Assembly: GCA_965218645.1 (NCBI GenBank)
Contig: OZ244627.1
Location: forward strand, 3,563,771-3,587,770
Source: Waterburya sp.
GTDB taxonomy: Bacteria > Cyanobacteriota > Cyanobacteriia > Cyanobacteriales > Xenococcaceae
Length of the DNA stretch: 24,000 nt
Reading direction: 5' to 3'
Shown: piece by piece, positions 5,017 through 23,369 of the stretch
How the letters are laid out: every line of letters begins with the position of its first letter
Position numbering within the stretch: the stretch's first letter is position 1
Made by a program: the position numbers and the translations under genes
The notes under the pieces: model-generated
Told to the model about the DNA's origin: nothing
The model's input: only the letters and a program-made list of their open reading frames with translations
Databases searched by the model: none

Positions 5017-5740
5017 ATGAATCAGGTGACAAGAGTGTTTGAGGGGAAGAGAAGTTATTGGGGCAATAAAGTTTCTATTCCATCCTCTCTACTTCTCCAT
5101 CTCCATTACTTCACTTGTAGCTCGCCTTATTGGTAAGATATACAAAGAATTAGGCATTCTCAAAAAAGGACATTGTATCGAAACAGATCGTTCGTGAATG
5201 GTAGCAGAATATATCGGACATACTGCCCCCAAGGTGGATAAATTAATTGAATCAGCCTTAGATGGTGTTTTGTTTATTGATGAAGCCTATACTCTAAAAC
5301 CAGAAAACGCGGGTAAAAATTTTGGGCAAAAAGCGATTGATACTTTATTAAAAAGAATGGAAGATTATCGCGATCGCATTGTAGTTATTGTCGCAGGTTA
5401 TAATCAGGAAATGTCTCGTTTTATTGAATCTAACCCAGGATTGCAATCTAGATTTACGCGCTATTTCACTTTTGAAGATTATCAACCAAATGAATTATTA
5501 ACTATCTTTCAAAAAATATGCAATTCTCATCATTATAAATTAGACAAAGCAGCAGAAAAAGTATTACTAACAAAATTTACAAAGTTATTTGAGGAGAGAA
5601 ATAAAAATTTTGGCAATGGTAGATTGGTACGCAATCTTTTTGAGAGAACTATAGAAAAGCAAGCCACAAGGCTAACTAAACTTTCTGAACTTGATCGAGA
5701 AAATATTGCCACCATCATGATAGAAGATATTGCTGTATAG
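5017..5740 (+). pseudogene. Decayed AAA+ ATPase gene (CbbX/SpoVK-type) with the P-loop deleted, a frameshift and an in-frame stop
   Basis: The 180-aa ORF at 5198-5740 carries the Walker B and downstream AAA motifs ([35 protein letters not shown]). Upstream in the same frame, VARLIGKIYKELGILKKGHCIETDRS runs into TGA at 5195-5197, where family members read DRSGLVA. Further upstream, in another frame, ...SSLLLHLHYFT stops exactly where GNPGTGKT should follow. Confidence 0.7.
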
Positions 5741-10751: not shown

Positions 10752-11528
10752 ATGTATTATATGCTCAAAGATGATATTGATTATATTGAGCAACTTCGTA
10801 GTCAGATTAATAATAGTCATGAATACCCAAGGGTATATTCTCAGCGCATATATTGCTTTACAGATAAAAAGCAAGCTAAAGAAGCAGCAGAGACTTTACA
10901 TCGAAAGTTAATTAAAGAAAAAAAATTTGCTTTGGAATGGGGTAAAGCAAATCCAAATTTCGATCTAAAAAAGTGGTGTATTGACAATAATGTTGCTTAC
11001 AAAGATGAGTGGGAAGAATCTAAATGGGATGGCATAGATAGTTATACTGCAATTTTTGAAATTAAAGAACTAATTGCTGACGATGAACAGCTAAGGGACA
11101 ATTTGAGACGAAGTAGATATATATATCATCCAAGACAGATGGACACTTGGTGTAAAGATAATCATATTTGTTATGAGCAGATTTGCGATGATAATCATCC
11201 CGACTATTGGCACAATTATAGAAAAGTTTTGGATTATATAAATTTGCCAGAAAATATTGAGCTATTAAGCAAGTTTTGGAAAGACGGTGAGGGTAACTTT
11301 GCTTTTGTCAAAGAAGAAATTGTGCTGCGAAAAGTATACATAAAAATCGGCGAAGAACTTCATAGTCAAGCTGAAGCCAGTAATTTATTTGCCGTGTCAG
11401 AAGAATATCGAGAAGCAGCAGGCAACTTATTAGTAGAAATATTAGAAAATAGCAAAACACAGGCTGAATCTAAATTAAAAGCACGAAAAGTACTGCAAGA
11501 TCTTGATTGGGACGAAATTCCTTTTTAA
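10752..11528 (+). CDS. Downstream fragment (rest of module 3) of the same modular protein
   Basis: 258-aa ORF. Its frame is already open from 10671 and reads IYSVYQSGVEFDDQ before the first Met. The C-terminal block VLDYINLPENIELLSKFWKDGEGNFAFVKEE matches VLDYLYLPENIELLSKFWKDGIGRFAFVQEE of module 1. Confidence 0.75.
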   Translation: MYYMLKDDIDYIEQLRSQINNSHEYPRVYSQRIYCFTDKKQAKEAAETLHRKLIKEKKFALEWGKANPNFDLKKWCIDNNVAYKDEWEESKWDGIDSYTAIFEIKELIADDEQLRDNLRRSRYIYHPRQMDTWCKDNHICYEQICDDNHPDYWHNYRKVLDYINLPENIELLSKFWKDGEGNFAFVKEEIVLRKVYIKIGEELHSQAEASNLFAVSEEYREAAGNLLVEILENSKTQAESKLKARKVLQDLDWDEIPF

Positions 11529-11557
11529 AAATTTCACTATTAAAGATTATTTATTAA

Positions 11558-12271
11558 ATGAAAGGATTAAGTATAACGGCTATTGGCTTGAGGGGTTTTG
11601 ATGAGTGTCTGGATATTTTTCACACTCTAAAGTCACCTTTAAAATTAGATTATCTGGAATTAGCGATTGGCAGTAAATGCGAGATCGATCGTGACTATCT
11701 AGATATTCCTTTAATTCTCCACGATTCTTGTTTATATGATCGCTATTTTCGCTATAGACTAGATCCTTTACAACCGTTAACCTGGAAAACTTACGCTGAT
11801 TTCACTACCAGTCATAAAGTTTTAGCCGTATCTCTTCATCCACCACCAAGAAGTCATTGCAGTCAAAAAGAATTAGAAGTGGCAATGATAAAAATGCAGA
11901 AAGCATTACAAGTACCTGTGTATTTGGAGGTGGTGCCTTCGGATAAGTATTGGTGTTCTAGTATCCAAACTCTAATTGATTTTCCTTTATTACTCGATGT
12001 CTCTCATGTAAACATTTGGTATCAGGGTAACACCACTGCAACTAAAGAGACTTGTCTGAATTTGCTTAATTCTGATTCAGTGGGGGCAATTCATCTGAGT
12101 CATAATGCAGGAAAAGCAGATACTCACGATCTCATTCCCAATAACATTTGGTTTAATAATTATTTGGAAGAATGGAATGATGATTATTTGGTTACTTACG
12201 AAAGCTTGCCTATTGATTACGCAGCTTATGAAAGGCTAGATAAATGTCGTAAATTTGAGCTTGATAGTTGA
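11558..12271 (+). CDS. Hypothetical protein, possibly a xylose-isomerase-like (AP endonuclease 2 type) TIM barrel
   Basis: 237 aa, starting 30 bp after the modular protein. The LLLDVSHVN and IHLSHNAGKADTHDLIP blocks resemble the metal-ligand His/Asp motifs of sugar-phosphate isomerase/epimerase-type TIM barrels. The functional assignment is weak. Confidence 0.6.
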   Translation: MKGLSITAIGLRGFDECLDIFHTLKSPLKLDYLELAIGSKCEIDRDYLDIPLILHDSCLYDRYFRYRLDPLQPLTWKTYADFTTSHKVLAVSLHPPPRSHCSQKELEVAMIKMQKALQVPVYLEVVPSDKYWCSSIQTLIDFPLLLDVSHVNIWYQGNTTATKETCLNLLNSDSVGAIHLSHNAGKADTHDLIPNNIWFNNYLEEWNDDYLVTYESLPIDYAAYERLDKCRKFELDS

Positions 12272-12349: not shown

Positions 12350-12619
12350 CTAATACACCTGATCGTGATTGCCAATATCAATAAAAACAGCGTTTCCATT
12401 ATCTGTAAAGTAAAATAAAACTCGCTCGTCATATTCTACGCTAAAGCTCCATAAGTCCTTCAGTTTTCCTGATAACTTATGAGTTTTGAGACTTGAATCG
12501 AAAGGATCTTTAGTAAATACTTCTATTTTTGCCCAAGATCTAGATTCTAACTCTGTCTTGCCTTTAATTCTTTTTTTGAACGATCGCCGAAAAGATGAAC
12601 TAAAGCTAACCTTGATCAT
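12350..12619 (-). CDS. Type II toxin, RelE/StbE-family mRNA interferase
   Basis: 89 aa. ...THKLSGKLKDLWSFSVEYDERVLFYFTDNGNAVFIDIGNHDQVY has the family pattern H-x-L-x-G-x-L ... D-x-R-hydrophobic ... G-x-H-D-x-V-Y at the C-terminus. Its start overlaps the antitoxin stop by 1 nt (TAATG). Confidence 0.85.
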   Translation of the reverse strand: MIKVSFSSSFRRSFKKRIKGKTELESRSWAKIEVFTKDPFDSSLKTHKLSGKLKDLWSFSVEYDERVLFYFTDNGNAVFIDIGNHDQVY

Positions 12620-12825
12620 TAATCTTCAATTAATTGTTTTAATTCATCAACATTCGAGGAAAAAATTAATTTACTATTTTGCTCTTCAAGACGGCTTTTT
12701 TGATAGTTACTATATATTGCTTCGCGTCGTTCCTCACGTAAGTATTGAGCTAAGAGTGCCTGAATTTCCAGTTTTTCTTCAAGGGAGAGGTTTTTAATTG
12801 TTTCAACTATATCACTAAAGCTCAT
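12619..12825 (-). CDS. Cognate antitoxin (small acidic helical protein)
   Basis: 68 aa, located immediately upstream of the toxin and translationally coupled to it. I recognise no family by eye, so the call rests on position and size. Confidence 0.65.
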   Translation of the reverse strand: MSFSDIVETIKNLSLEEKLEIQALLAQYLREERREAIYSNYQKSRLEEQNSKLIFSSNVDELKQLIED

Positions 12826-13208: not shown

Positions 13209-13529
13209 ATGTTTGATTTTCTTAATCCTCTTTTAAATCGTCACCCAGAAAAATATAAAGCTGACGTAGAAATTTACACTTGGGCTACTTGTCCTTTTTG
13301 TATTCGTGCCAAGCTATTAATGTGGTGGAAAGGAGTTGAATTTACCGAATATAAGATAGACGGCGATGAACAAGCTAGAACGCAAATGGCTCAACGGGCT
13401 AATGGTAAAAGAAGCGTACCCCAGATTTTTGTTAATAATCAGCATTTAGGTGGCTGTGACGATCTTTATGATTTAGATGCTCAAGGACAGTTAGAACCAT
13501 TGTTAATTAAAGAATCTAGTTCCGTTTAA
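13209..13529 (+). CDS. grxC: Glutaredoxin 3 (dithiol CPFC type)
   Basis: 106 aa. It has the active site WATCPFCIRAK, the SVPQIFVNNQHLGGCDDL motif, and a typical Grx3 size. Confidence 0.9.
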   Translation: MFDFLNPLLNRHPEKYKADVEIYTWATCPFCIRAKLLMWWKGVEFTEYKIDGDEQARTQMAQRANGKRSVPQIFVNNQHLGGCDDLYDLDAQGQLEPLLIKESSSV

Positions 13530-13533
13530 TTGT

Positions 13534-13577
13534 AAAAGGCGATCGCTCTATCAAGATAACTAGCGATCGCTTTTTTG
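13534..13577 (+). terminator. Rho-independent terminator after grxC
   Basis: The stem is formed by two HIP1-containing arms (gcgatcgct 13539-13547 and agcgatcgc 13562-13570), flanked by aaaa and tttttt. Confidence 0.6.
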
Positions 13578-13754
13578 TTGTATCCGTTTTTTTTACTTGA
13601 ATTTGGTTTTCTAAGGAGGAAAATAAGTACATCGTAATCCTATAGCTCCCTAGACTAAGATAGTAGATTGACTAGGAAGTAATTCATAAGCTATTACTAA
13701 CAAACATAGAACCTCTAAGCTGTAATAGTCATAAAATCATAATTGAAAACCAGT

Positions 13755-15179
13755 ATGAGTAAGTTAAGCCTTAAACCTAAAGCCCGTAGTCGAAACTCCA
13801 AACGTCAGGAATTAGAAGTTGACCCGATCTTTCTGTTGCTATTGGCATTGGGAGTTTTTCTAGTCACCTATGTTGTAATTGGTATTGTGCCACCATTGAG
13901 GCAATCTTATGTTGGGGTACTACTATTTGAAAGAGGTCCTATTCAATACTTAGTAGTGGCATTATCAGCGATAGTGTTGTCCACTACTATATTGAAATTT
14001 TTGCTGCTGAGAAAGGAATATACTGCCTTGAGCAAAATATGGATTGCCGATCATATACCTTTAGATCAGCCTGATGCTCATGAGGTTGACTATTTTCAGC
14101 AGAGGTTGATGAAGGACAATAACTTAATAGCACTAAGATGTGGGCGGATCTTGAAAGCCTATGTAAAAAGTGGCGATCGCACTGTGGCTAACGAGTTTGC
14201 TCTAGATGATTCTTCTTTTTATCTGAGTGCTTCAGAATCTTCTTACTCTGTACCTCGTATTTTGGTTTGGGCAATTCCTCTCTTAGGCTTTATTGGTACG
14301 GTCGTAGGGATTAGTAGCGCGGTTAATAATTTTTCTGGTCTTTTAAACACCGCTGGAGACATCGAAAAAATTAAAGCGGGAATTGGAGCAGTAACACAAG
14401 GCTTAGGTGTAGCATTTGATACTACTTTGCTAGCACTGTTTTTGAGTGTACTGGTTATGATTCCCTTGGTGATAGTAGAAAAGTACGAGTCTAAATTACT
14501 TTTGGGAATTGATGTCTTTATCAACGATAAATTGTTGCCCCGATTAAAAAAGAAAAATGAACAGCTAGATCCAGCAACTATCGATCGAGCTGTAGAAGGC
14601 GCAATCAAAGAATATTTTCCCCAACCTCAAGACTTGATCCAGCCAGCCAATGCCTACGCTGAACAAGCTGCCGAAAGACTATCTAAAGGATTTTTATCTG
14701 AAATAGGCAAGGTTCAGGACGTTAGCTCTCAGGTTATTGCTCAAGTTACCGAAGTCAGAGAAATGGCAGATCGCGATCGCCATGAGTTTCTGAGCTTTTT
14801 TGCCGAGCAACAGCAAGCGAACCAAGAGTTAGTCGTGCAAATTCGCGCAATTTTAGAAGAGATTAGAAGCAAAAATATGGCAGTTGCCAACGATCTCAAC
14901 GCTCAAACCCAAGGAATTAGCAACCAGCTAGAAAAAGCTGCTCAAGTTTTAGAAAGTAGAGTTGGTTCATTAGAAACCGCAACTCAGAAAATGACTGATT
15001 TTCAAGAGATACAGCTGGGTTTAGAAAGAAGTTTTGCTTCCTTGGAAAAGACTGCCCAACTAGAAAATGTTCTAGCAGGAGTTAAAGATAACTTATCTCA
15101 GCTTCAGCCCATTCTCCAACAGCTAAATAAGCCTCGTCGCATCACTTTTGTCGAACAGGACAATGGTAATAATTCTTAG
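13755..15179 (+). CDS. MotA/ExbB/TolQ-family proton-channel protein with a long C-terminal coiled-coil tail
   Basis: The ORF track starts at TTG 13743; ATG 13755 (MSKLSL...) is the more likely start. There are four predicted TM helices. The MotA_ExbB core is IPLLGFIGTVVGI...GIGAVTQGLGVAFDTTLLALFLSVLVMIPLV. Residues ~268-478 are Q/E/L-rich, helix-forming sequence. Confidence 0.85.
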   Translation: MSKLSLKPKARSRNSKRQELEVDPIFLLLLALGVFLVTYVVIGIVPPLRQSYVGVLLFERGPIQYLVVALSAIVLSTTILKFLLLRKEYTALSKIWIADHIPLDQPDAHEVDYFQQRLMKDNNLIALRCGRILKAYVKSGDRTVANEFALDDSSFYLSASESSYSVPRILVWAIPLLGFIGTVVGISSAVNNFSGLLNTAGDIEKIKAGIGAVTQGLGVAFDTTLLALFLSVLVMIPLVIVEKYESKLLLGIDVFINDKLLPRLKKKNEQLDPATIDRAVEGAIKEYFPQPQDLIQPANAYAEQAAERLSKGFLSEIGKVQDVSSQVIAQVTEVREMADRDRHEFLSFFAEQQQANQELVVQIRAILEEIRSKNMAVANDLNAQTQGISNQLEKAAQVLESRVGSLETATQKMTDFQEIQLGLERSFASLEKTAQLENVLAGVKDNLSQLQPILQQLNKPRRITFVEQDNGNNS

Positions 15180-15200
15180 TAAAACTAGACAGCATTTTTT

Positions 15201-15665
15201 ATGTCAAGGCGTAATATTCATCGCAAAAAGCAGGCAGAGGTAGAGCTATTTCCCTTTCTCTCTGTTCTTGCCTGTACCATTGGTACTTTAATTTTATTAA
15301 TTATCGTTTTAACTACCCAAGCTTTAAAACCTCAAGAGGCTGTTGTAGTTGCTAAAGCTGAAAAGGATGGTAAAGGTATTAATAAAAACAAAACTCCTCT
15401 TTATATTGAATGTCGTCAAGATGGTTTTATAATTCATCCCAGCAAAGAATTTGCTCCTAGAGCCGATATATACGACCAAAACTCTCCCTTAAGAAAAACA
15501 ATTGCCAAGTTAAAAGCTAACAAAGATAAACAGTATTTAATTGTTATTTTGCGTCCCGATGGTTTGGAAATGTTTGATAAACTGCGCGCACTCGTAGACA
15601 AAGAAGGAATTGATATTGGTTATGAGCCTTTAGAATTTGGCTTGGAACTAAAAATAGAAAGTTAA
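15201..15665 (+). CDS. ExbD/TolR-like single-pass membrane protein, paralog 1 (Ser in place of the TM Asp)
   Basis: 154 aa. A basic N-terminus is followed by ELFPFLSVLACTIGTLILLIIVL, which is alignable to ExbD TPFIDVMLVLLIIFMV. The C-terminal QYLIVILRPDGLEMFDKLRALVDKEGIDIGYEP resembles the ExbD periplasmic domain pattern (v-l-i-r-a-D...y..vv.vmd....aG...vgl). Confidence 0.6.
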   Translation: MSRRNIHRKKQAEVELFPFLSVLACTIGTLILLIIVLTTQALKPQEAVVVAKAEKDGKGINKNKTPLYIECRQDGFIIHPSKEFAPRADIYDQNSPLRKTIAKLKANKDKQYLIVILRPDGLEMFDKLRALVDKEGIDIGYEPLEFGLELKIES

Positions 15666-15706
15666 GACTAACAAAATAAACTAAATTTTAAAAACTAAAA
15701 TTATTA

Positions 15707-16420
15707 ATGAGAAGCAGAGCAAGGCGAACAACCAATTATGCCAGCCAAAATTTAGATTCTTTTTTAGATATTCTGACAAACACTGTTGGCGTATTGATGT
15801 TTATCAGTTTGTTTGTAACTTTGATCGCCACTGGTAGTAACCCTAAAACTACAGTAACAATTCAGACTCCTTTATCCTCTCCAACCAAAAAAGAGTCTTT
15901 GTGGTTTGAAATAAAAAACAACAAAGTAATCTACCTAAACCTGCGTCAAGTAAGAGAAAAAGAACTGGAATTGACAGAGAACCTGCCTAACTGCAATAAA
16001 CCAGCAAACGGCTTAGATTCACCTGCGAGTCTAAGTAATTACCAGTCTTGTCTACTAAGCGTTTTGGGTCGTCAAAGCAACTTTAGAACTAGCACCAAAA
16101 ACTATGAGGTTCAAGCCGTAGACGAAGGTGTATCTTTGCTCTTCAGACCAATATCTGAAGAGGTAGGGGAGACAAATAGCCAGCTAGCGGCAGCAGATTC
16201 TCAGTTTAAAGAAGTTTTGTCTCAACACAAACCCAATCAAGACTATTTGGTATTTATTGTTAGACCAGATAGCTTTGAGACTTTTCGCGCAGCTAGAAAA
16301 CAAGCTTGGGATGCTGGGTATCAGGTAGGTTGGGAACCCCAAGCTCAAAACGCGCCGATAAAAATCCGTACTATACTCGGTTCTGAACTTCCTGGAGGTC
16401 AGTCTATCGGTGTGCAGTAG
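15707..16420 (+). CDS. ExbD/TolR-like single-pass membrane protein, paralog 2 (TM Asp retained)
   Basis: 237 aa. NLDSFLDILTNTVGVLMFISLFV carries Asp21 at the ExbD D25-equivalent position. The C-terminal DYLVFIVRPDSFETFRAARKQAWDAGYQVGWEP is clearly paralogous to the preceding gene. Confidence 0.6.
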   Translation: MRSRARRTTNYASQNLDSFLDILTNTVGVLMFISLFVTLIATGSNPKTTVTIQTPLSSPTKKESLWFEIKNNKVIYLNLRQVREKELELTENLPNCNKPANGLDSPASLSNYQSCLLSVLGRQSNFRTSTKNYEVQAVDEGVSLLFRPISEEVGETNSQLAAADSQFKEVLSQHKPNQDYLVFIVRPDSFETFRAARKQAWDAGYQVGWEPQAQNAPIKIRTILGSELPGGQSIGVQ

Positions 16421-16467: not shown

Positions 16468-17184
16468 ATGACTATAACTACTTATAAATGGTCAATTGAA
16501 GAATATCACCTGCTAATTGAATCTGGACTATTAGAAGGAAAATCTGTTGAGTTGTTAGATGGTGAAATAGTTGAAATGAGTCCAGAACGAGAAGAACATA
16601 GCTATACTAATGATGATGTGGCAGAGCTACTACGAACAAAACTCAAAGGATTAGCTAAAATACGTGAATCTCATCCAATTACTTTAAACAATTCCCTTAA
16701 TTCAAGGGCAAGTGAGCCAGAACCCGATATCGCAGTCGTTAGATTACCCAAGACTATTTATCTTCAGCATCATCCATATCCTGAAGATATTTATTGGTTG
16801 ATAGAGGTGCGACCCCCTAAAGAGTTCAGCAGTTCCTTCAAGTCGGGAAACCCGCCCAACGGACTGCTTCACCGCGTCGCCGTCAGGCGCAAACGTCCGA
16901 CTCAAGCTTCCGAAATAAATTCGGAAGTCGCGGACTTGGGAACGCGCACCTTTGAAGTTTCCAACAAAACTTTAAGTAAAGATTTAGCAGAAAAAAGTAT
17001 CATTTATGCCAGTAACAACATTCAAGAGTATTGGGTAATAGATTTGGTAAACAAAAAGCTAATTGTTCATACTCATCCTCAAAACAATAGCTATTCTAAA
17101 ATAACAGAATATACTGATGGTTCAATTTCTCATTTGGCTTTTCCCGATCTTGAAATTGCTCTAGATCAACTTTTATTGTTTTAA
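16468..17184 (+). CDS. Uma2-family (DUF820) PD-(D/E)xK endonuclease carrying an in-frame 50-codon insertion
   Basis: YKWSIEEYHLLIESGLL...VELLDGEIVEMSPE, EPDIAVV, YWLIEV and, after the insertion, SKDLAEKSIIYASNNIQEYWVIDL are the standard Uma2 blocks. The insertion sits between the IEV and the D...K motifs. Confidence 0.8.
   Translation: MTITTYKWSIEEYHLLIESGLLEGKSVELLDGEIVEMSPEREEHSYTNDDVAELLRTKLKGLAKIRESHPITLNNSLNSRASEPEPDIAVVRLPKTIYLQHHPYPEDIYWLIEVRPPKEFSSSFKSGNPPNGLLHRVAVRRKRPTQASEINSEVADLGTRTFEVSNKTLSKDLAEKSIIYASNNIQEYWVIDLVNKKLIVHTHPQNNSYSKITEYTDGSISHLAFPDLEIALDQLLLF
16809..16958. mobile_element. 150-bp GC-rich, hairpin-rich MITE-like insertion inside the Uma2 gene
   Basis: The composition shifts abruptly from AT-rich to GC-rich. 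Terminal inverted repeat: ggtgcg (16806-16811) / cgcacc (16945-16950). Internal hairpins: cttccgaa-ataaa-ttcggaag, cggg-aaa-cccg, cgcc-gtca-ggcg. It is flanked by gaggt (16804-16808) and gaagt (16954-16958), a possible target duplication. Confidence 0.45.
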
Positions 17185-17198
17185 CTTTTTTATTGCTC

Positions 17199-17426
17199 AT
17201 GAAAGCATTTGTAGGTTTATTAAATTTTTCGATGTGGGCAGGTTATGTTGCAGCGATCGCCATTTTCTCAATTCAAAACATTAAACCTGTATCGCTTAAG
17301 TTTCTCATGTTTCAATCTATCAATTTACCCGTAGGAGTATTATTGACTTTTTGTGGCGCAGCAGGAATAATTATTGGCTGGTTCATTCCCTTATTATTTT
17401 CTAGAAGAAGAAGAGCTAACTTGTAA
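17199..17426 (+). CDS. Small membrane protein, LapA-domain (DUF1049)-like
   Basis: About 75 aa with two TM helices and a C-terminal RRRRANL. The pattern ...SIQNIKPVSLKFLMFQSINLPVGVLL... is typical of DUF1049. The track begins at TTG 17193; ATG 17199 is the more likely start. Confidence 0.55.
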   Translation: MKAFVGLLNFSMWAGYVAAIAIFSIQNIKPVSLKFLMFQSINLPVGVLLTFCGAAGIIIGWFIPLLFSRRRRANL

Positions 17427-22307: not shown

Positions 22308-23369
22308 ATGATCAAAAGTAAGCAATTTATAGGTTGGATGTTAGCAGGGCTAATCGCTAGCGGTGCGATCGCTAGTTGTTCTTCTTTCCAAGGTAAAGCT
22401 AGTAGCAGTAGCCAAGCCCAAGCACAAGAGCCAGAAGAAGCCAAGCTGACTTTAGTTTCCTACGCGGTTACTCAGAGTGCCTACGAAAAAATTATTCCTA
22501 AATTTACGCAACAATGGAAAGCCAAAACTGGACAGGATGTAGTTATCGAGCAGAGTTATGGCGGTTCTGGTTCACAAACTCGCGCTGTAATTGATGGTTT
22601 AGAAGCAGATGTTGTAGCCTTGGCATTAGCTTTAGATACCAAAAAGATCGAAGAAGCAGGATTGATCGAACCAAACTGGGAACAAGAGTTACCCAATGAA
22701 TCGATCGCCCATAAATCCGTAGTGGCAATAGTTAAACGGGATGATAGCGTCAAAGTATCGAAATGGTCGGATTTAGCTAATCCAGGGATTGAAGTAATTA
22801 CCGCTAATCCAAAAACCTCTGGTGGTGCGAGATGGAATTATCTGGCTCTCTGGGGTTCTATAACCCAGGCTGGAGGAAGCCAGCAAAAAGCAGAAGCCTT
22901 TACCGAAAAAATATTTGCCAACGCTCCTGTATTACCTGAAGATGCCCGCGAAGCGAGTGATGTTTTCTATCAACAGGGACAGGGTAATGTCTTAATCAAT
23001 TACGAAAACGAAGTCTTACTAGCTAAACAAAAAGGCGAAACTTTGCCTTACATTATTCCTACCGATTACAACATTTCAATTGATAGTCCAGTAGCGGTAG
23101 TCGATGCCAATGTGGATAAGCACGGTACAAGAGAAGTTGCTCAGGCTTTTACTGAATTTCTTTTTACTCCTGAAGCACAACAAGAATTCGCTCAAGCTGG
23201 CTTTCGTCCCATCGAAACAACTGTCAACAAAGAATTTATCAAACAATATCCCGTAATCAACAAACTATTTACCGTCAAGGATTTAGGTAGCTGGGATAAA
23301 ATCCAGGGGCAATTTTTTGATGATGGTGCAGAGTTCGACAAAATGATGACCAAAATCAACCAAAAATAG
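22308..23369 (+). CDS. sbpA: Sulfate/thiosulfate ABC transporter substrate-binding protein
   Basis: 353 aa with a lipoprotein-like signal (ASGAIASCSS). SYGGSGSQTRAVIDGLEADVVALALALD and ANPKTSGGARWNYLALWG are Sbp/CysP family blocks. cysT follows. Confidence 0.9.
   Translation: MIKSKQFIGWMLAGLIASGAIASCSSFQGKASSSSQAQAQEPEEAKLTLVSYAVTQSAYEKIIPKFTQQWKAKTGQDVVIEQSYGGSGSQTRAVIDGLEADVVALALALDTKKIEEAGLIEPNWEQELPNESIAHKSVVAIVKRDDSVKVSKWSDLANPGIEVITANPKTSGGARWNYLALWGSITQAGGSQQKAEAFTEKIFANAPVLPEDAREASDVFYQQGQGNVLINYENEVLLAKQKGETLPYIIPTDYNISIDSPVAVVDANVDKHGTREVAQAFTEFLFTPEAQQEFAQAGFRPIETTVNKEFIKQYPVINKLFTVKDLGSWDKIQGQFFDDGAEFDKMMTKINQK

Follow-up and report, generated by a model that had tools for sequence, protein, structure and literature searches.

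A conserved three-gene module of Waterburya sp. encoding a tailed, ZorA-like channel subunit and two ExbD-like paralogs, a candidate housekeeping motor of the 5:2 kind

The window analyzed here is a stretch of 24,000 nucleotides (24 kb) from Waterburya sp., in which three neighbouring ORFs on the forward strand, designated genes A, B and C (Table 1), are separated by gaps of 21 bp (A-B) and 41 bp (B-C). This same-strand trio with its short gaps had been claimed in the original prediction, and the ORF coordinates agree with it. An upstream TTG at 13743 would extend the product of gene A to 478 aa; orthologs, and a database protein of 474 aa that is 100% identical, speak for the ATG start. The strong terminator that had been proposed 3' of grxC was recovered by RNA folding as a hairpin of -18.3 kcal/mol (z = -3.9), a stability equalled by 0 of 200 shuffled sequences, with a stem made of two HIP1 GCGATCGC palindromes. 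It sets the trio apart from upstream transcription and is followed by a spacer of about 170 bp up to gene A.

Table 1. Features of the locus, in positions of the 24-kb window.
Feature	Position	Strand	Description
grxC	13209-13529		Pfam Glutaredoxin, E=3e-19
Intrinsic terminator after grxC	13534-13581	+	RNA fold; 14-bp stem followed by a U-run
Gene A	13755-15179	+	474 aa from ATG; MotA/ExbB/ZorA-like channel (rotor) subunit
Gene B	15201-15665	+	154 aa; single-pass ExbD-like subunit without transmembrane Asp
Gene C	15707-16420	+	237 aa; single-pass paralog of B with transmembrane Asp
Uma2-family gene	16468-17184		Between gene C and the LapA-domain gene
LapA-domain membrane protein gene	17193-17426	+	77 aa; Pfam LapA_dom, E=9e-8

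Ordinary chromosomal genes surround the trio (grxC, the Uma2-family and LapA-domain genes, nfi and an MFS transporter), and close relatives have the same flanks. The setting is that of housekeeping genes rather than of a defence island. A Pfam scan of the 17 neighbouring ORFs of the window detected no TonB, TolA, Pal, OmpA-like or TonB-dependent receptor domains, just as had been predicted, and no iron-related genes lie within the window. A solute-binding protein encoded near the trio is a sulfate binder.

Gene A had been described as encoding a MotA/ExbB-core protein of about twice the usual size, and both parts of this description hold. The protein reaches Pfam MotA_ExbB (PF01618) over residues 162-241 by a narrow margin (27.4 bits, cut-off 22.9), and precomputed PF01618 matches are present on many, not all, of its orthologs. 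It is about twice as long as a normal ExbB or TolQ, the difference being due to a helical C-terminal tail of about 225 aa (residues ~250-474) that is rich in Q, L, A and E. Ahead of the tail, hydropathy delimits four hydrophobic segments (residues 18-49, 61-86, 165-191 and 216-245), and the N-terminus is basic. Across representatives, the tip of the tail carries a conserved L.P.L..LNKPRRITFVE motif, with KPRRITLVE in one group and a basic RGWFGRR-type end in another, and protein length in the A family varies widely, from 274 to 1023 aa. Besides P175, the motifs GF.GTV.G (178-185) and AFDTT (220-224) are invariant; in 16 A proteins, down to 23% identity, the residues P175, G178, F179, G181, T182, V183, G185, A220, F221 and T224 are all retained. 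The GF.GTV and AFDTT motifs sit in the third and fourth hydrophobic segments, and we take them as the putative equivalent of the ring of Ser/Thr residues that, in 5:2 motors of solved structure, encircles the Asp of the axle.

A search of the PDB with an A-family profile returned ZorA (8vvn) as the best match (E=6e-9), aligned over the final two membrane segments as well as the tail, and ExbB, TolQ and MotA chains were absent from the best 60 matches. Judged by this profile comparison, the solved relative nearest to A is ZorA, not ExbB, TolQ or MotA. The closeness of A to ZorA over ExbB is a point that the original prediction lacked.

A single hydrophobic segment at the N-terminus is present in the products of both gene B and gene C, which also share the C-terminal motif YL..(V/L)RPD..E.F...R.....G..(I/V)G(Y/W)EP. 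In an hhalign comparison, C met B with a probability of 97% (E=8e-11), and on this evidence the two are paralogs. Their proposed nature as divergent ExbD/TolR-like proteins was upheld, for B by its own similarity to ExbD and for C by its paralogy to B. Gene B matched Pfam ExbD (PF02472) with E=0.0023 and 18.4 bits, under the cut-off of 25.4; C gave no match to this model, and 2 of 16 diverse B/C proteins matched it at E<=1. The AF2 model of B (pLDDT 73) has a periplasmic layout of beta-beta-beta-alpha-beta-alpha-beta, and its top PDB match in Foldseek was the periplasmic domain of E. coli ExbD (8p9r_B; probability 0.96, TM-score 0.68). An alignment of diverse B proteins matched ExbD/TolR in hhalign with E=9e-5 (probability 60%, 110 columns) and in register, the position of ExbD Asp25 included. 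In both fold and profile comparison, B appears to resemble ExbD.

Profile searches against PDB sequences gave no matches with either B or C, and C had no match in Pfam, NCBIfam, PADLOC or the PDB sequences, nor did its model find a convincing fold match. The AF2 model of C has a pLDDT above 90 over residues 61-220 and shows a periplasmic domain in which the common beta...alpha-beta-alpha-beta core is joined by an insertion of about 85 aa (residues ~77-160) carrying two invariant cysteines, C96 and C115. Neither B nor C matched an OmpA-like or peptidoglycan-binding domain in Pfam, NCBIfam or PADLOC; the layout of their models appears ExbD-like instead.

The two paralogs differ at the position of the transmembrane Asp. 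The helix of B reads ELFPFLS21VLAC, with Ser where ExbD has Asp25, and this Ser21 is near-invariant across 121 sequences. The helix of C reads NLD17SFLD21ILTN and keeps the transmembrane Asp, which is invariant in 119 close homologs and found in 41/41 distant C-type proteins; the C-type protein L029 has Ser at this position. B usually lacks the transmembrane Asp, but this loss is not universal in the sequences compared: among 59 B-type proteins, the residue was Ser in 29, Ala in 8, Asn in 7, and Thr and Pro in one each, and 13 retained Asp. The presence of Asp in C, combined with its usual absence from B, suggests that the axle mixes B with C and binds ions at one site. That the Asp is confined to C within the trio is a further point that the original prediction did not contain.

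Searches at E<=1e-3 retrieved 572 homologs of A, 529 of B and 446 of C, and with hundreds of homologs for each gene the trio is not a product of chance. Nor is it a peculiarity of one genome. Among named cyanobacteria it is carried by Pleurocapsales, Gloeothece, Geminocystis, Thermosynechococcus and a Synechococcus, whose genomes include large and small (~2.6 Mb) ones, and it also occurs in at least one phylum unrelated to cyanobacteria, with named members from Kiritimatiellia, and at many further metagenomic loci. In the survey of ortholog neighbourhoods, a B-type and then a C-type gene follow A in 31 of the 40 distant metagenomic loci that have enough downstream sequence, and the A-B-C order recurs in Gloeothece, CP073341 and PVC-like contigs. 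Linkage is not obligatory; in several genomes C lies apart from A-B. Among 80 loci, no further gene family was conserved next to the trio as a fourth member, and the lack of a linked output partner, which had been claimed for this locus, holds across the family as well. A search of 2.9 million viral contigs yielded one weak relative only. By these sequence comparisons, the trio is a widespread, conserved chromosomal module. A lone A homolog was seen in a phage-like region, and a Pleurocapsa genome holds a second copy that adjoins glycosyltransferases.

The LapA-domain gene may, tentatively, be regarded as a lineage-specific fourth member of the module. It directly follows C in other Pleurocapsales loci, with 15 loci in which it comes after C, among them one (L119) where C is apart from A-B. 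Outside the Pleurocapsales lineage, the gene is absent after C.

ExbB-ExbD complexes are said to be required for iron uptake, with redundancy among three clusters, a result reportedly obtained by Jiang and colleagues in 2015. Reviews likewise report that these complexes are necessary for iron uptake and that the three clusters are redundant, and sll0477-0479 is handled in the literature as the third exbB-exbD cluster of Synechocystis sp. PCC 6803. This cluster has been annotated as "ExbB-like" followed by "HP" and "HP" and forms one transcription unit that is 6.7-fold induced without iron (PMC4195498); under the names exbB, exbD3 and exbD4, the genes sll0477, sll0478 and sll0479 have been described as responding to iron, and in strain 6803 they have a Fur box (PMC8634477). 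Compared by gene order and annotation pattern, our trio is probably the counterpart of sll0477-0479. Both present an ExbB-like protein and then two hypothetical proteins, the Synechocystis genes constitute a single transcription unit in a cyanobacterium, and the trio family occurs in several named cyanobacterial lineages. In contrast, sll0477-0479 has been treated as an ordinary ExbB-ExbD system, and the tail, the affinity to ZorA and the Asp asymmetry are undescribed in the literature examined. By this analogy the trio is probably the syntenic ortholog of a characterised ExbB-ExbD iron-uptake cluster, a case that the original prediction had itself set against its claim of novelty. The argument that the motor is an orphan for want of a TonB also proved weak: tonB rarely adjoins exbB-exbD (PMC12204202), and because it is rarely linked to its motor, a missing TonB nearby is uninformative.

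We consider it rather likely that the trio encodes a housekeeping motor of the 5:2 kind (MotAB/ExbBD/ZorAB) that belongs to a distinct, unnamed family and in cyanobacteria is likely orthologous to sll0477-0479. By homology, A would build a five-membered ring in the membrane, with C-terminal tails reaching into the cytoplasm like the bundled tail of ZorA. A central axle, about which rotation is presumed, would be composed of two transmembrane helices, one from B and one from C. D21 of C would be the single protonatable Asp, facing the Thr/Ser ring of A (T182, T223/T224), and B, with Ser at the Asp position, would be a partner that does not conduct. In the periplasm, the ExbD-like domains of both proteins may hold or pull a partner encoded elsewhere. 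In cyanobacteria, we posit that such an iron-starvation-induced cluster would add to envelope energy transduction for iron uptake. The stoichiometry could be A5:B1:C1 or, with B peripheral, A5:C2, and separate A5B2 and A5C2 complexes could also be formed.

A bolder proposal, which we advance tentatively as a real possibility, is that the module represents an unrecognised major branch of 5:2 motors, defined by a tailed ZorA-like ring and an obligately mixed axle of one Asp and one Asp-less subunit. It would then be related to the Zorya motor but have a housekeeping role, and the cyanobacterial "third ExbB-ExbD" would have been misfiled. With a cytoplasmic tail on the ring and a mixed, ExbD-like axle, such a motor could do work both inside and outside the membrane, the conserved tail tip engaging a cytoplasmic partner.

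The most conventional alternative is a third redundant Ton-system motor. A5 with B/C would then work just as ExbB-ExbD does, supplying energy to a TonB encoded elsewhere and to TonB-dependent receptors, and both the tail and the lack of Asp in B would be neutral features. This is how the literature files sll0477-0479, as exbB-exbD and redundant among three clusters for iron uptake, and the ExbD domain that is the top structural match of B was solved in complex with TonB (8p9r). A tonB gene apart from its motor would also be normal (PMC12204202). We nevertheless consider this explanation unlikely, if worth keeping in view, as the A-family profile finds ZorA and misses ExbB/TolQ chains among its best 60 PDB matches, B and C remain outside the Pfam ExbD threshold, and a conserved B-then-C pairing with Asp only in C departs from the homodimeric ExbD. 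Furthermore, the tail and the C-terminal motif are conserved across phyla, which points to selection on a cytoplasmic function that ExbB lacks.

Rather improbable, in our view, is a Tol-like motor for envelope maintenance or division, whose proton flow would stabilise or remodel the outer membrane and peptidoglycan in lineages without Tol-Pal. Cyanobacteria would be such a lineage because curated Tol-Pal systems are restricted to Gracilicutes (PMC12204202), and a chromosomal module conserved in cyanobacteria with large as well as ~2.6 Mb genomes would fit this role. So would the linkage of C in Pleurocapsales to the LapA-domain gene, the domain being named for LPS assembly, and the glycosyltransferases beside the second Pleurocapsa copy. 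However, no TolA-, TolB- or Pal-like partner or conserved fourth gene was found family-wide, the sole regulation data indicate iron limitation, and the trio is also present in Kiritimatiellia, within a group that has Tol-Pal.

A Zorya-related sensor, a tailed motor that detects envelope perturbation such as phage attack and signals via its tail to effectors elsewhere, is very unlikely. The best solved relative of A is indeed ZorA, the match covers part of the tail, tail length is highly variable, as in ZorA, and one A homolog on its own is located in a phage-like region. Weak matches to PADLOC ZorA/ZorB models were also obtained, those of A to the ZorA models ranging from E=6e-6 to 0.04 with best stretches in the core helices only, but its score against NCBIfam ZorA_2 (17.4 bits) was far under the cut-off of 100. 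No Zorya effector genes (zorCD, zorE, zorFG) or other conserved neighbours accompany the trio in the 80 loci, and neither B nor C has the defining feature of ZorB, an OmpA-like peptidoglycan-binding domain. The housekeeping context, the stable flanks in close relatives and the near absence from viral contigs likewise argue against it.

Least probable of all is a motor for surface motility or secretion in the manner of AglRQS or GldLM, serving a gliding, pilus-linked or secretion-linked process: one channel gene plus two anchor genes matches the AglR/AglQ/AglS architecture, a CheA-like/MCP cluster lies directly after A-B in five Pleurocapsales loci, and Gloeothece has a GAF-MCP gene 4.8 kb downstream, but these chemotaxis-type neighbours are convergent or distant and not conserved family-wide, no Glt, Gld or secretion genes lie nearby, and most of the named carriers (Thermosynechococcus, a Synechococcus, Geminocystis) are unicellular cyanobacteria, for which Agl/Gld-type gliding has, to our knowledge, not been described.

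Motors of the 5:2 type form a small, intensively studied set that comprises flagellar stators and the Ton, Tol, gliding, type 9 secretion and Zorya systems. A further widespread branch would be a new case in which to see how rotation might be driven, or restricted, by one ion-binding site, and with the trio the role of a ZorA-type tail can be asked about outside defence. Should the link to sll0477-0479 be true, a different machine would be among the three "ExbB-ExbD" clusters that have been called jointly essential for the uptake of iron, the published redundancy would have to be reread, and TonB-independent inorganic iron uptake would become directly testable.

The trio had been predicted to match none of ExbBD, AglRQS and Zorya cleanly, and this holds. 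With ZorA-ZorB (PDB 8vvn, 8qyd), it shares a channel protein built of a MotA/ExbB-type core and a long helical C-terminal tail of variable length, as well as the Ser/Thr ring and the axle Asp. ZorA, however, has three transmembrane helices against the four hydrophobic segments of A. ZorB forms a homodimer and carries an OmpA-like peptidoglycan-binding domain, whereas the trio has two different ExbD-like proteins, only one of them with Asp, and occupies a housekeeping locus without a ZorC/D/E/F/G effector. The ties to ExbB-ExbD and TolQ-TolR are the MotA_ExbB match of A, the ExbD-like periplasmic domain of B and the grouping of the probable, iron-regulated Synechocystis ortholog with exbB-exbD. 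In contrast to these systems, A adds an N-terminal membrane hairpin and the tail, B and C stay under the Pfam ExbD threshold with no TonB or TolA linked, and the proposed axle consists of two paralogs with Asp only in C instead of a homodimer.

Like AglR-AglQ-AglS of Myxococcus, the trio has one TolQ-like and two TolR-like genes in a row, which implies a mixed axle. No sequence affinity to these proteins emerged in any search, AglR is not known to carry a long tail, and the trio, unlike the Myxococcus genes, has no Glt gliding genes in the window or family-wide. A further parallel (PMC12204202) is provided by TolQ-like pentamers whose partners are heterologous vWA proteins with a trans-pore helix. 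While both vWA axle proteins carry the Asp, and those of the trio are ExbD-like with one usually lacking it, the two modules are alike in being of a non-canonical 5:2 type in which a two-protein axle is encoded beside the channel gene (PMC12204202).

According to our analysis, the channel-like protein A and the two single-pass proteins B and C are encoded by a genuine conserved module. The window belongs to a cyanobacterium of the Pleurocapsales, whose nearest named relatives are Waterburya and Pleurocapsa. ORF analysis reproduced the three-gene layout of the original prediction, including its coordinates and the gaps of 21 bp between A and B and 41 bp between B and C. The start codon chosen for A is also the start of a 100%-identical database protein. 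The upstream neighbor of the trio is the glutaredoxin gene grxC, and the strong terminator proposed to follow it is seen as a hairpin with a U-run, whose stability lies far above that of shuffled sequence (z -3.9). No Rfam match was found in the window, and no promoter was assigned because the sites found by the promoter scan were no more numerous than in shuffled sequence. A minus-strand ORF located entirely within A is of low complexity and was taken as spurious.

The remaining ORFs of the window are ordinary chromosomal functions. As predicted, none of them encodes a TonB, TolA, Pal, OmpA-like or TonB-dependent receptor domain. The argument built on this absence, namely that the motor is an orphan, has no force because tonB seldom adjoins exbB-exbD, according to passages of a survey of MotAB relatives (PMC12204202). 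Three further spots within the window may be mentioned. Between an unannotated 237-aa gene and grxC, a YafQ-family toxin ORF (89 aa, Pfam E=1.5e-7) shares one base with the stop codon of the 68-aa ORF that precedes it, and the two are probably a type II toxin-antitoxin pair. For two neighboring ORFs of 258 and 237 aa, neither Pfam nor NCBIfam gave a match; the second ORF is kept beside grxC in the close relatives L001, L002, and L021 (77-95% identity). A 180-aa ORF aligns with no more than the C-terminal portion of an AAA ATPase and its lid domain (AAA profile positions 36-129) and could represent a truncated gene or one whose start was miscalled.

Features of the trio locus and other ORFs of the window
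Feature	Position	Strand	Description
Gene A	13755-15179	+	474 aa, counted from ATG
Gene B	15201-15665	+	154 aa
Gene C	15707-16420	+	237 aa
Hairpin and U-run	13534-13581		3' of the glutaredoxin gene; hairpin made of two HIP1 palindromes
ORF within A	14243-14608	-	Taken as spurious
YafQ-family toxin ORF and 68-aa ORF	12350-12825	-	Probable toxin-antitoxin pair
Two ORFs without family match	10752-12271	+	258 and 237 aa
AAA-related ORF	5198-5740	+	180 aa
Sulfate-binding protein	22308-23369
Permeases and transporters			Xanthine/uracil permease, EamA transporter, MFS transporter
Membrane proteins			OprB/SLH porin, LapA-domain protein
Enzymes			MutS2, endonuclease V, UPRTase, Fe-SOD
Other ORFs			HEAT-repeat protein, Uma2-family protein

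Protein A exceeds the Pfam MotA_ExbB cut-off of 22.9 by a narrow margin (27.4 bits, residues 162-241) and matches the ZorA models of NCBIfam and PADLOC only weakly. Its four hydrophobic segments (18-49, 61-86, 165-191, and 216-245) and strongly basic N-terminus suggest a MotA-like layout with both termini in the cytoplasm. Across 16 aligned family members, with identities as low as 23%, invariant residues concentrate in the last two membrane segments (P175, GF.GTV.G at 178-185, and AF(D)TT at 220-224). These motifs probably correspond to the Ser/Thr ring around the axle Asp of 5:2 motors with known structures, in which five channel subunits enclose two axle subunits. A PDB search with A alone returned coiled-coil noise only. 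The top match of the 16-member profile was ZorA of the Shewanella type I Zorya system (8vvn, E=6e-9), in an alignment that extends over the two core helices and into part of the tail. The best 60 PDB matches of this profile include no ExbB, TolQ, MotA, or PomA chain.

The tail of A (about 250 to 474) is rich in Q, L, A, and E, and its PDB matches are helical-bundle proteins only. The shortest family member, at 274 aa, is a tailless protein of a Synechococcus; the longest reaches 1023 aa and contains tandem helical repeats. Many members end in a conserved L.P.L..L.(K/Q)PR(R/V)I.L.E motif. Among the family representatives P0361-P0510, tail length varies between 0 and about 760 residues, and tandem repeats occur; this motif ends the tails of cyanobacteria and a Kiritimatiellia-like group, and a different group carries a basic, RGWFGRR-like end of the RGW(F/S)(L)FGRR type.

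Proteins B and C each consist of one N-terminal helix and a periplasmic domain, as judged from AF2 models and hydropathy. The alignment of their profiles (97% probability, E=8e-11) takes in both the helix and the C-terminal beta-alpha-beta unit, and by this sequence comparison they are paralogs. That the second gene is ExbD/TolR-like, as had been proposed, is borne out for B by profile and by Foldseek. Four lines of evidence agree here: a Pfam ExbD match, under the cut-off (E=0.0023); the beta-beta-beta-alpha-beta-alpha-beta order of the AF2 model; its best Foldseek match in the PDB, the periplasmic domain of E. coli ExbD (8p9r_B, probability 0.96, TM-score 0.68, E=0.07); and an hhalign comparison of a diverse B alignment with E. 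coli ExbD/TolR (110 columns, E=9e-5, probability 60%). The ExbD and TolR sequences used for the latter were verified against the PDB; shallow alignments were uninformative against E. coli ExbD, and the comparison improved only with diverse sequences. PDB sequence searches with close-homolog profiles of B and C gave no match even at E<=10.

The AF2 model of C (pLDDT above 90 over residues 61-220) shares its first strands and its last alpha-beta-alpha-beta unit with B and carries an inserted stretch of about 85 aa, in which two cysteines are invariant. C is modeled as an elaborated version of the B layout, and a fold search with its model gave no clear match to any solved fold. Neither B nor C passes the ExbD family threshold, and only two of 16 diverse B/C members match ExbD at E<=1. 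A separate family inside the ExbD/TolR superfamily is the most fitting description of them.

The two proteins differ at the residue that aligns with the essential Asp25 of ExbD: B has Ser21 there (ELFPFLSVLAC), and C has Asp21 (NLDSFLDILTN). Ser21 is nearly invariant among 121 close homologs of B and Asp21 is invariant among 119 of C. Across 80 metagenomic loci and the reference loci, Asp is present in all aligned C-type proteins (41/41), and B-type proteins carry Ser (29), Asp (13), Ala (8), Asn (7), Thr (1), or Pro (1). Exceptions are the C-type protein of reference locus L029, which has Ser, and one Synechococcus with Asp in both types. At metagenomic locus L037 (1151-2792), A is followed by three axle genes: an Asp-less B-type, a second B-type with Asp (NLESFLDILTC), and a C-type.

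For the trio as a whole (ring, axle, ion site, tails, and partners) we infer a mechanism from its homology with solved 5:2 motors. A pentamer of A would encircle the helix pair of B and C, with Asp21 of C as the sole ion-binding site, and ion flow would move the ring relative to the axle. As an A5B2 complex would lack the Asp and be canonically inactive, B would have to act together with C, inside or beside the ring. The tails of A would reach into the cytoplasm like the bundled ZorA tail, where the conserved tail tip suggests a second contact. The periplasmic ExbD-like domains of B and C may contact a partner encoded elsewhere, with TonB as the obvious candidate.

An exhaustive profile-free search with A found relatives in 2885 clusters (50% identity) at E<=1e-3, of which 123 reached E<=1e-30; a genome-collection scan with one protein gave Pleurocapsales relatives and, apart from these, a single weak Desulfobacterales match. 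Named carriers include Gloeothece verrucosa, Geminocystis herdmanii, many Thermosynechococcus strains, Synechococcus sp. CS-1329, and a Kiritimatiellia bacterium. The order A, B-type, C-type was seen in Gloeothece, in genome CP073341, and on non-cyanobacterial contigs with planctomycete-like neighbors. Of the 40 metagenomic loci whose sequence extends 2.5 kb or more past A, 31 also show this order, six have one of the two genes, and three have neither. The three genes need not lie together: C is located apart from A-B in one Pleurocapsales subclade and in Geminocystis. Clustering of all neighboring ORFs of 80 metagenomic loci revealed no fourth recurrent family (A at 69 loci, B/C at 47, the next cluster at 7). 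A phage origin of the trio was rejected, as the viral contig search yielded one weak relative only.

Several neighborhoods deserve mention. A 77-aa LapA-domain gene immediately follows C in Pleurocapsales relatives (L005, L006, L009, L010, L016, L017, L019, L020, L036, L119) and remains with C at L119, where C has moved off A-B; in Waterburya agarophytonicola the two lie together on a separate contig. In the window (16468-17426) and the closest relatives, a Uma2-family gene separates them, and the association is absent beyond the Pleurocapsales lineage. A convergent CheA-like kinase/MCP cluster lies right after B in five Pleurocapsales loci missing C (L007, L011, L012, L013, L015), and Gloeothece has a GAF-MCP gene 4.8 kb downstream (L024:12561-13755); these neighbors are probably coincidental. 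Some Pleurocapsa genomes contain a second, shorter paralogous trio (372, 150, and 235 aa; L117:4679-6960, L118:6001-8048) adjoining glycosyltransferase genes and a polyketide synthase gene. On a 103-kb contig (Logan SRR18577679, L113:7001-8269), a 422-aa A homolog with 48% identity lacks B, C, and the KPRRI tail tip and is surrounded by about 30 same-strand small ORFs without Pfam matches and by IS605/TnpB genes, in what looks like a phage or other mobile element.

In Synechocystis sp. PCC 6803, sll0477-sll0478-sll0479, annotated as an ExbB-like protein and two hypothetical proteins, form one transcription unit that is 6.7-fold induced under iron limitation (PMC4195498). These genes are named exbB, exbD3, and exbD4; exbD3 and exbD4 respond to iron in two strains, and a Fur box was detected in strain 6803 (PMC8634477). 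Reviews refer to Jiang et al. 2015 for the requirement of three ExbB-ExbD complexes in iron uptake. We consider it likely that the trio is orthologous to this cluster, because a canonical ExbD would be annotated as such, as sll1405 is, and because the A-B-C family occurs in several named cyanobacterial lineages. The work of Jiang and colleagues from 2015 reportedly points to redundancy, with single and double mutants taking up less iron and a triple mutant that is apparently lethal. Residual synteny with futA2 (slr0513) was looked for since the near-consecutive transcription-unit numbers of sll0477-0479 and futA2 (TU3083, TU3085; PMC4195498) were taken as chromosomal closeness. It was dropped: the solute-binding protein of the window is a sulfate binder, and the Geminocystis copy has no adjoining FutA.

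Recent surveys of MotAB relatives describe heterogeneous "generic ion transporters" with extra domains and TolQ-like rings paired with heterologous axle proteins, and the A-B-C family was not found in their passages or term matches (PMC12505986, PMC12204202). The trio has probably been recorded already as the third "exbB-exbD" cluster of Synechocystis and is therefore not a wholly new system. The view that it fits none of ExbBD, Zorya, and AglRQS cleanly is upheld, and its ZorA affinity, the conserved tip of the tail, and the Asp/non-Asp pair seen across the family appear to be undescribed features.
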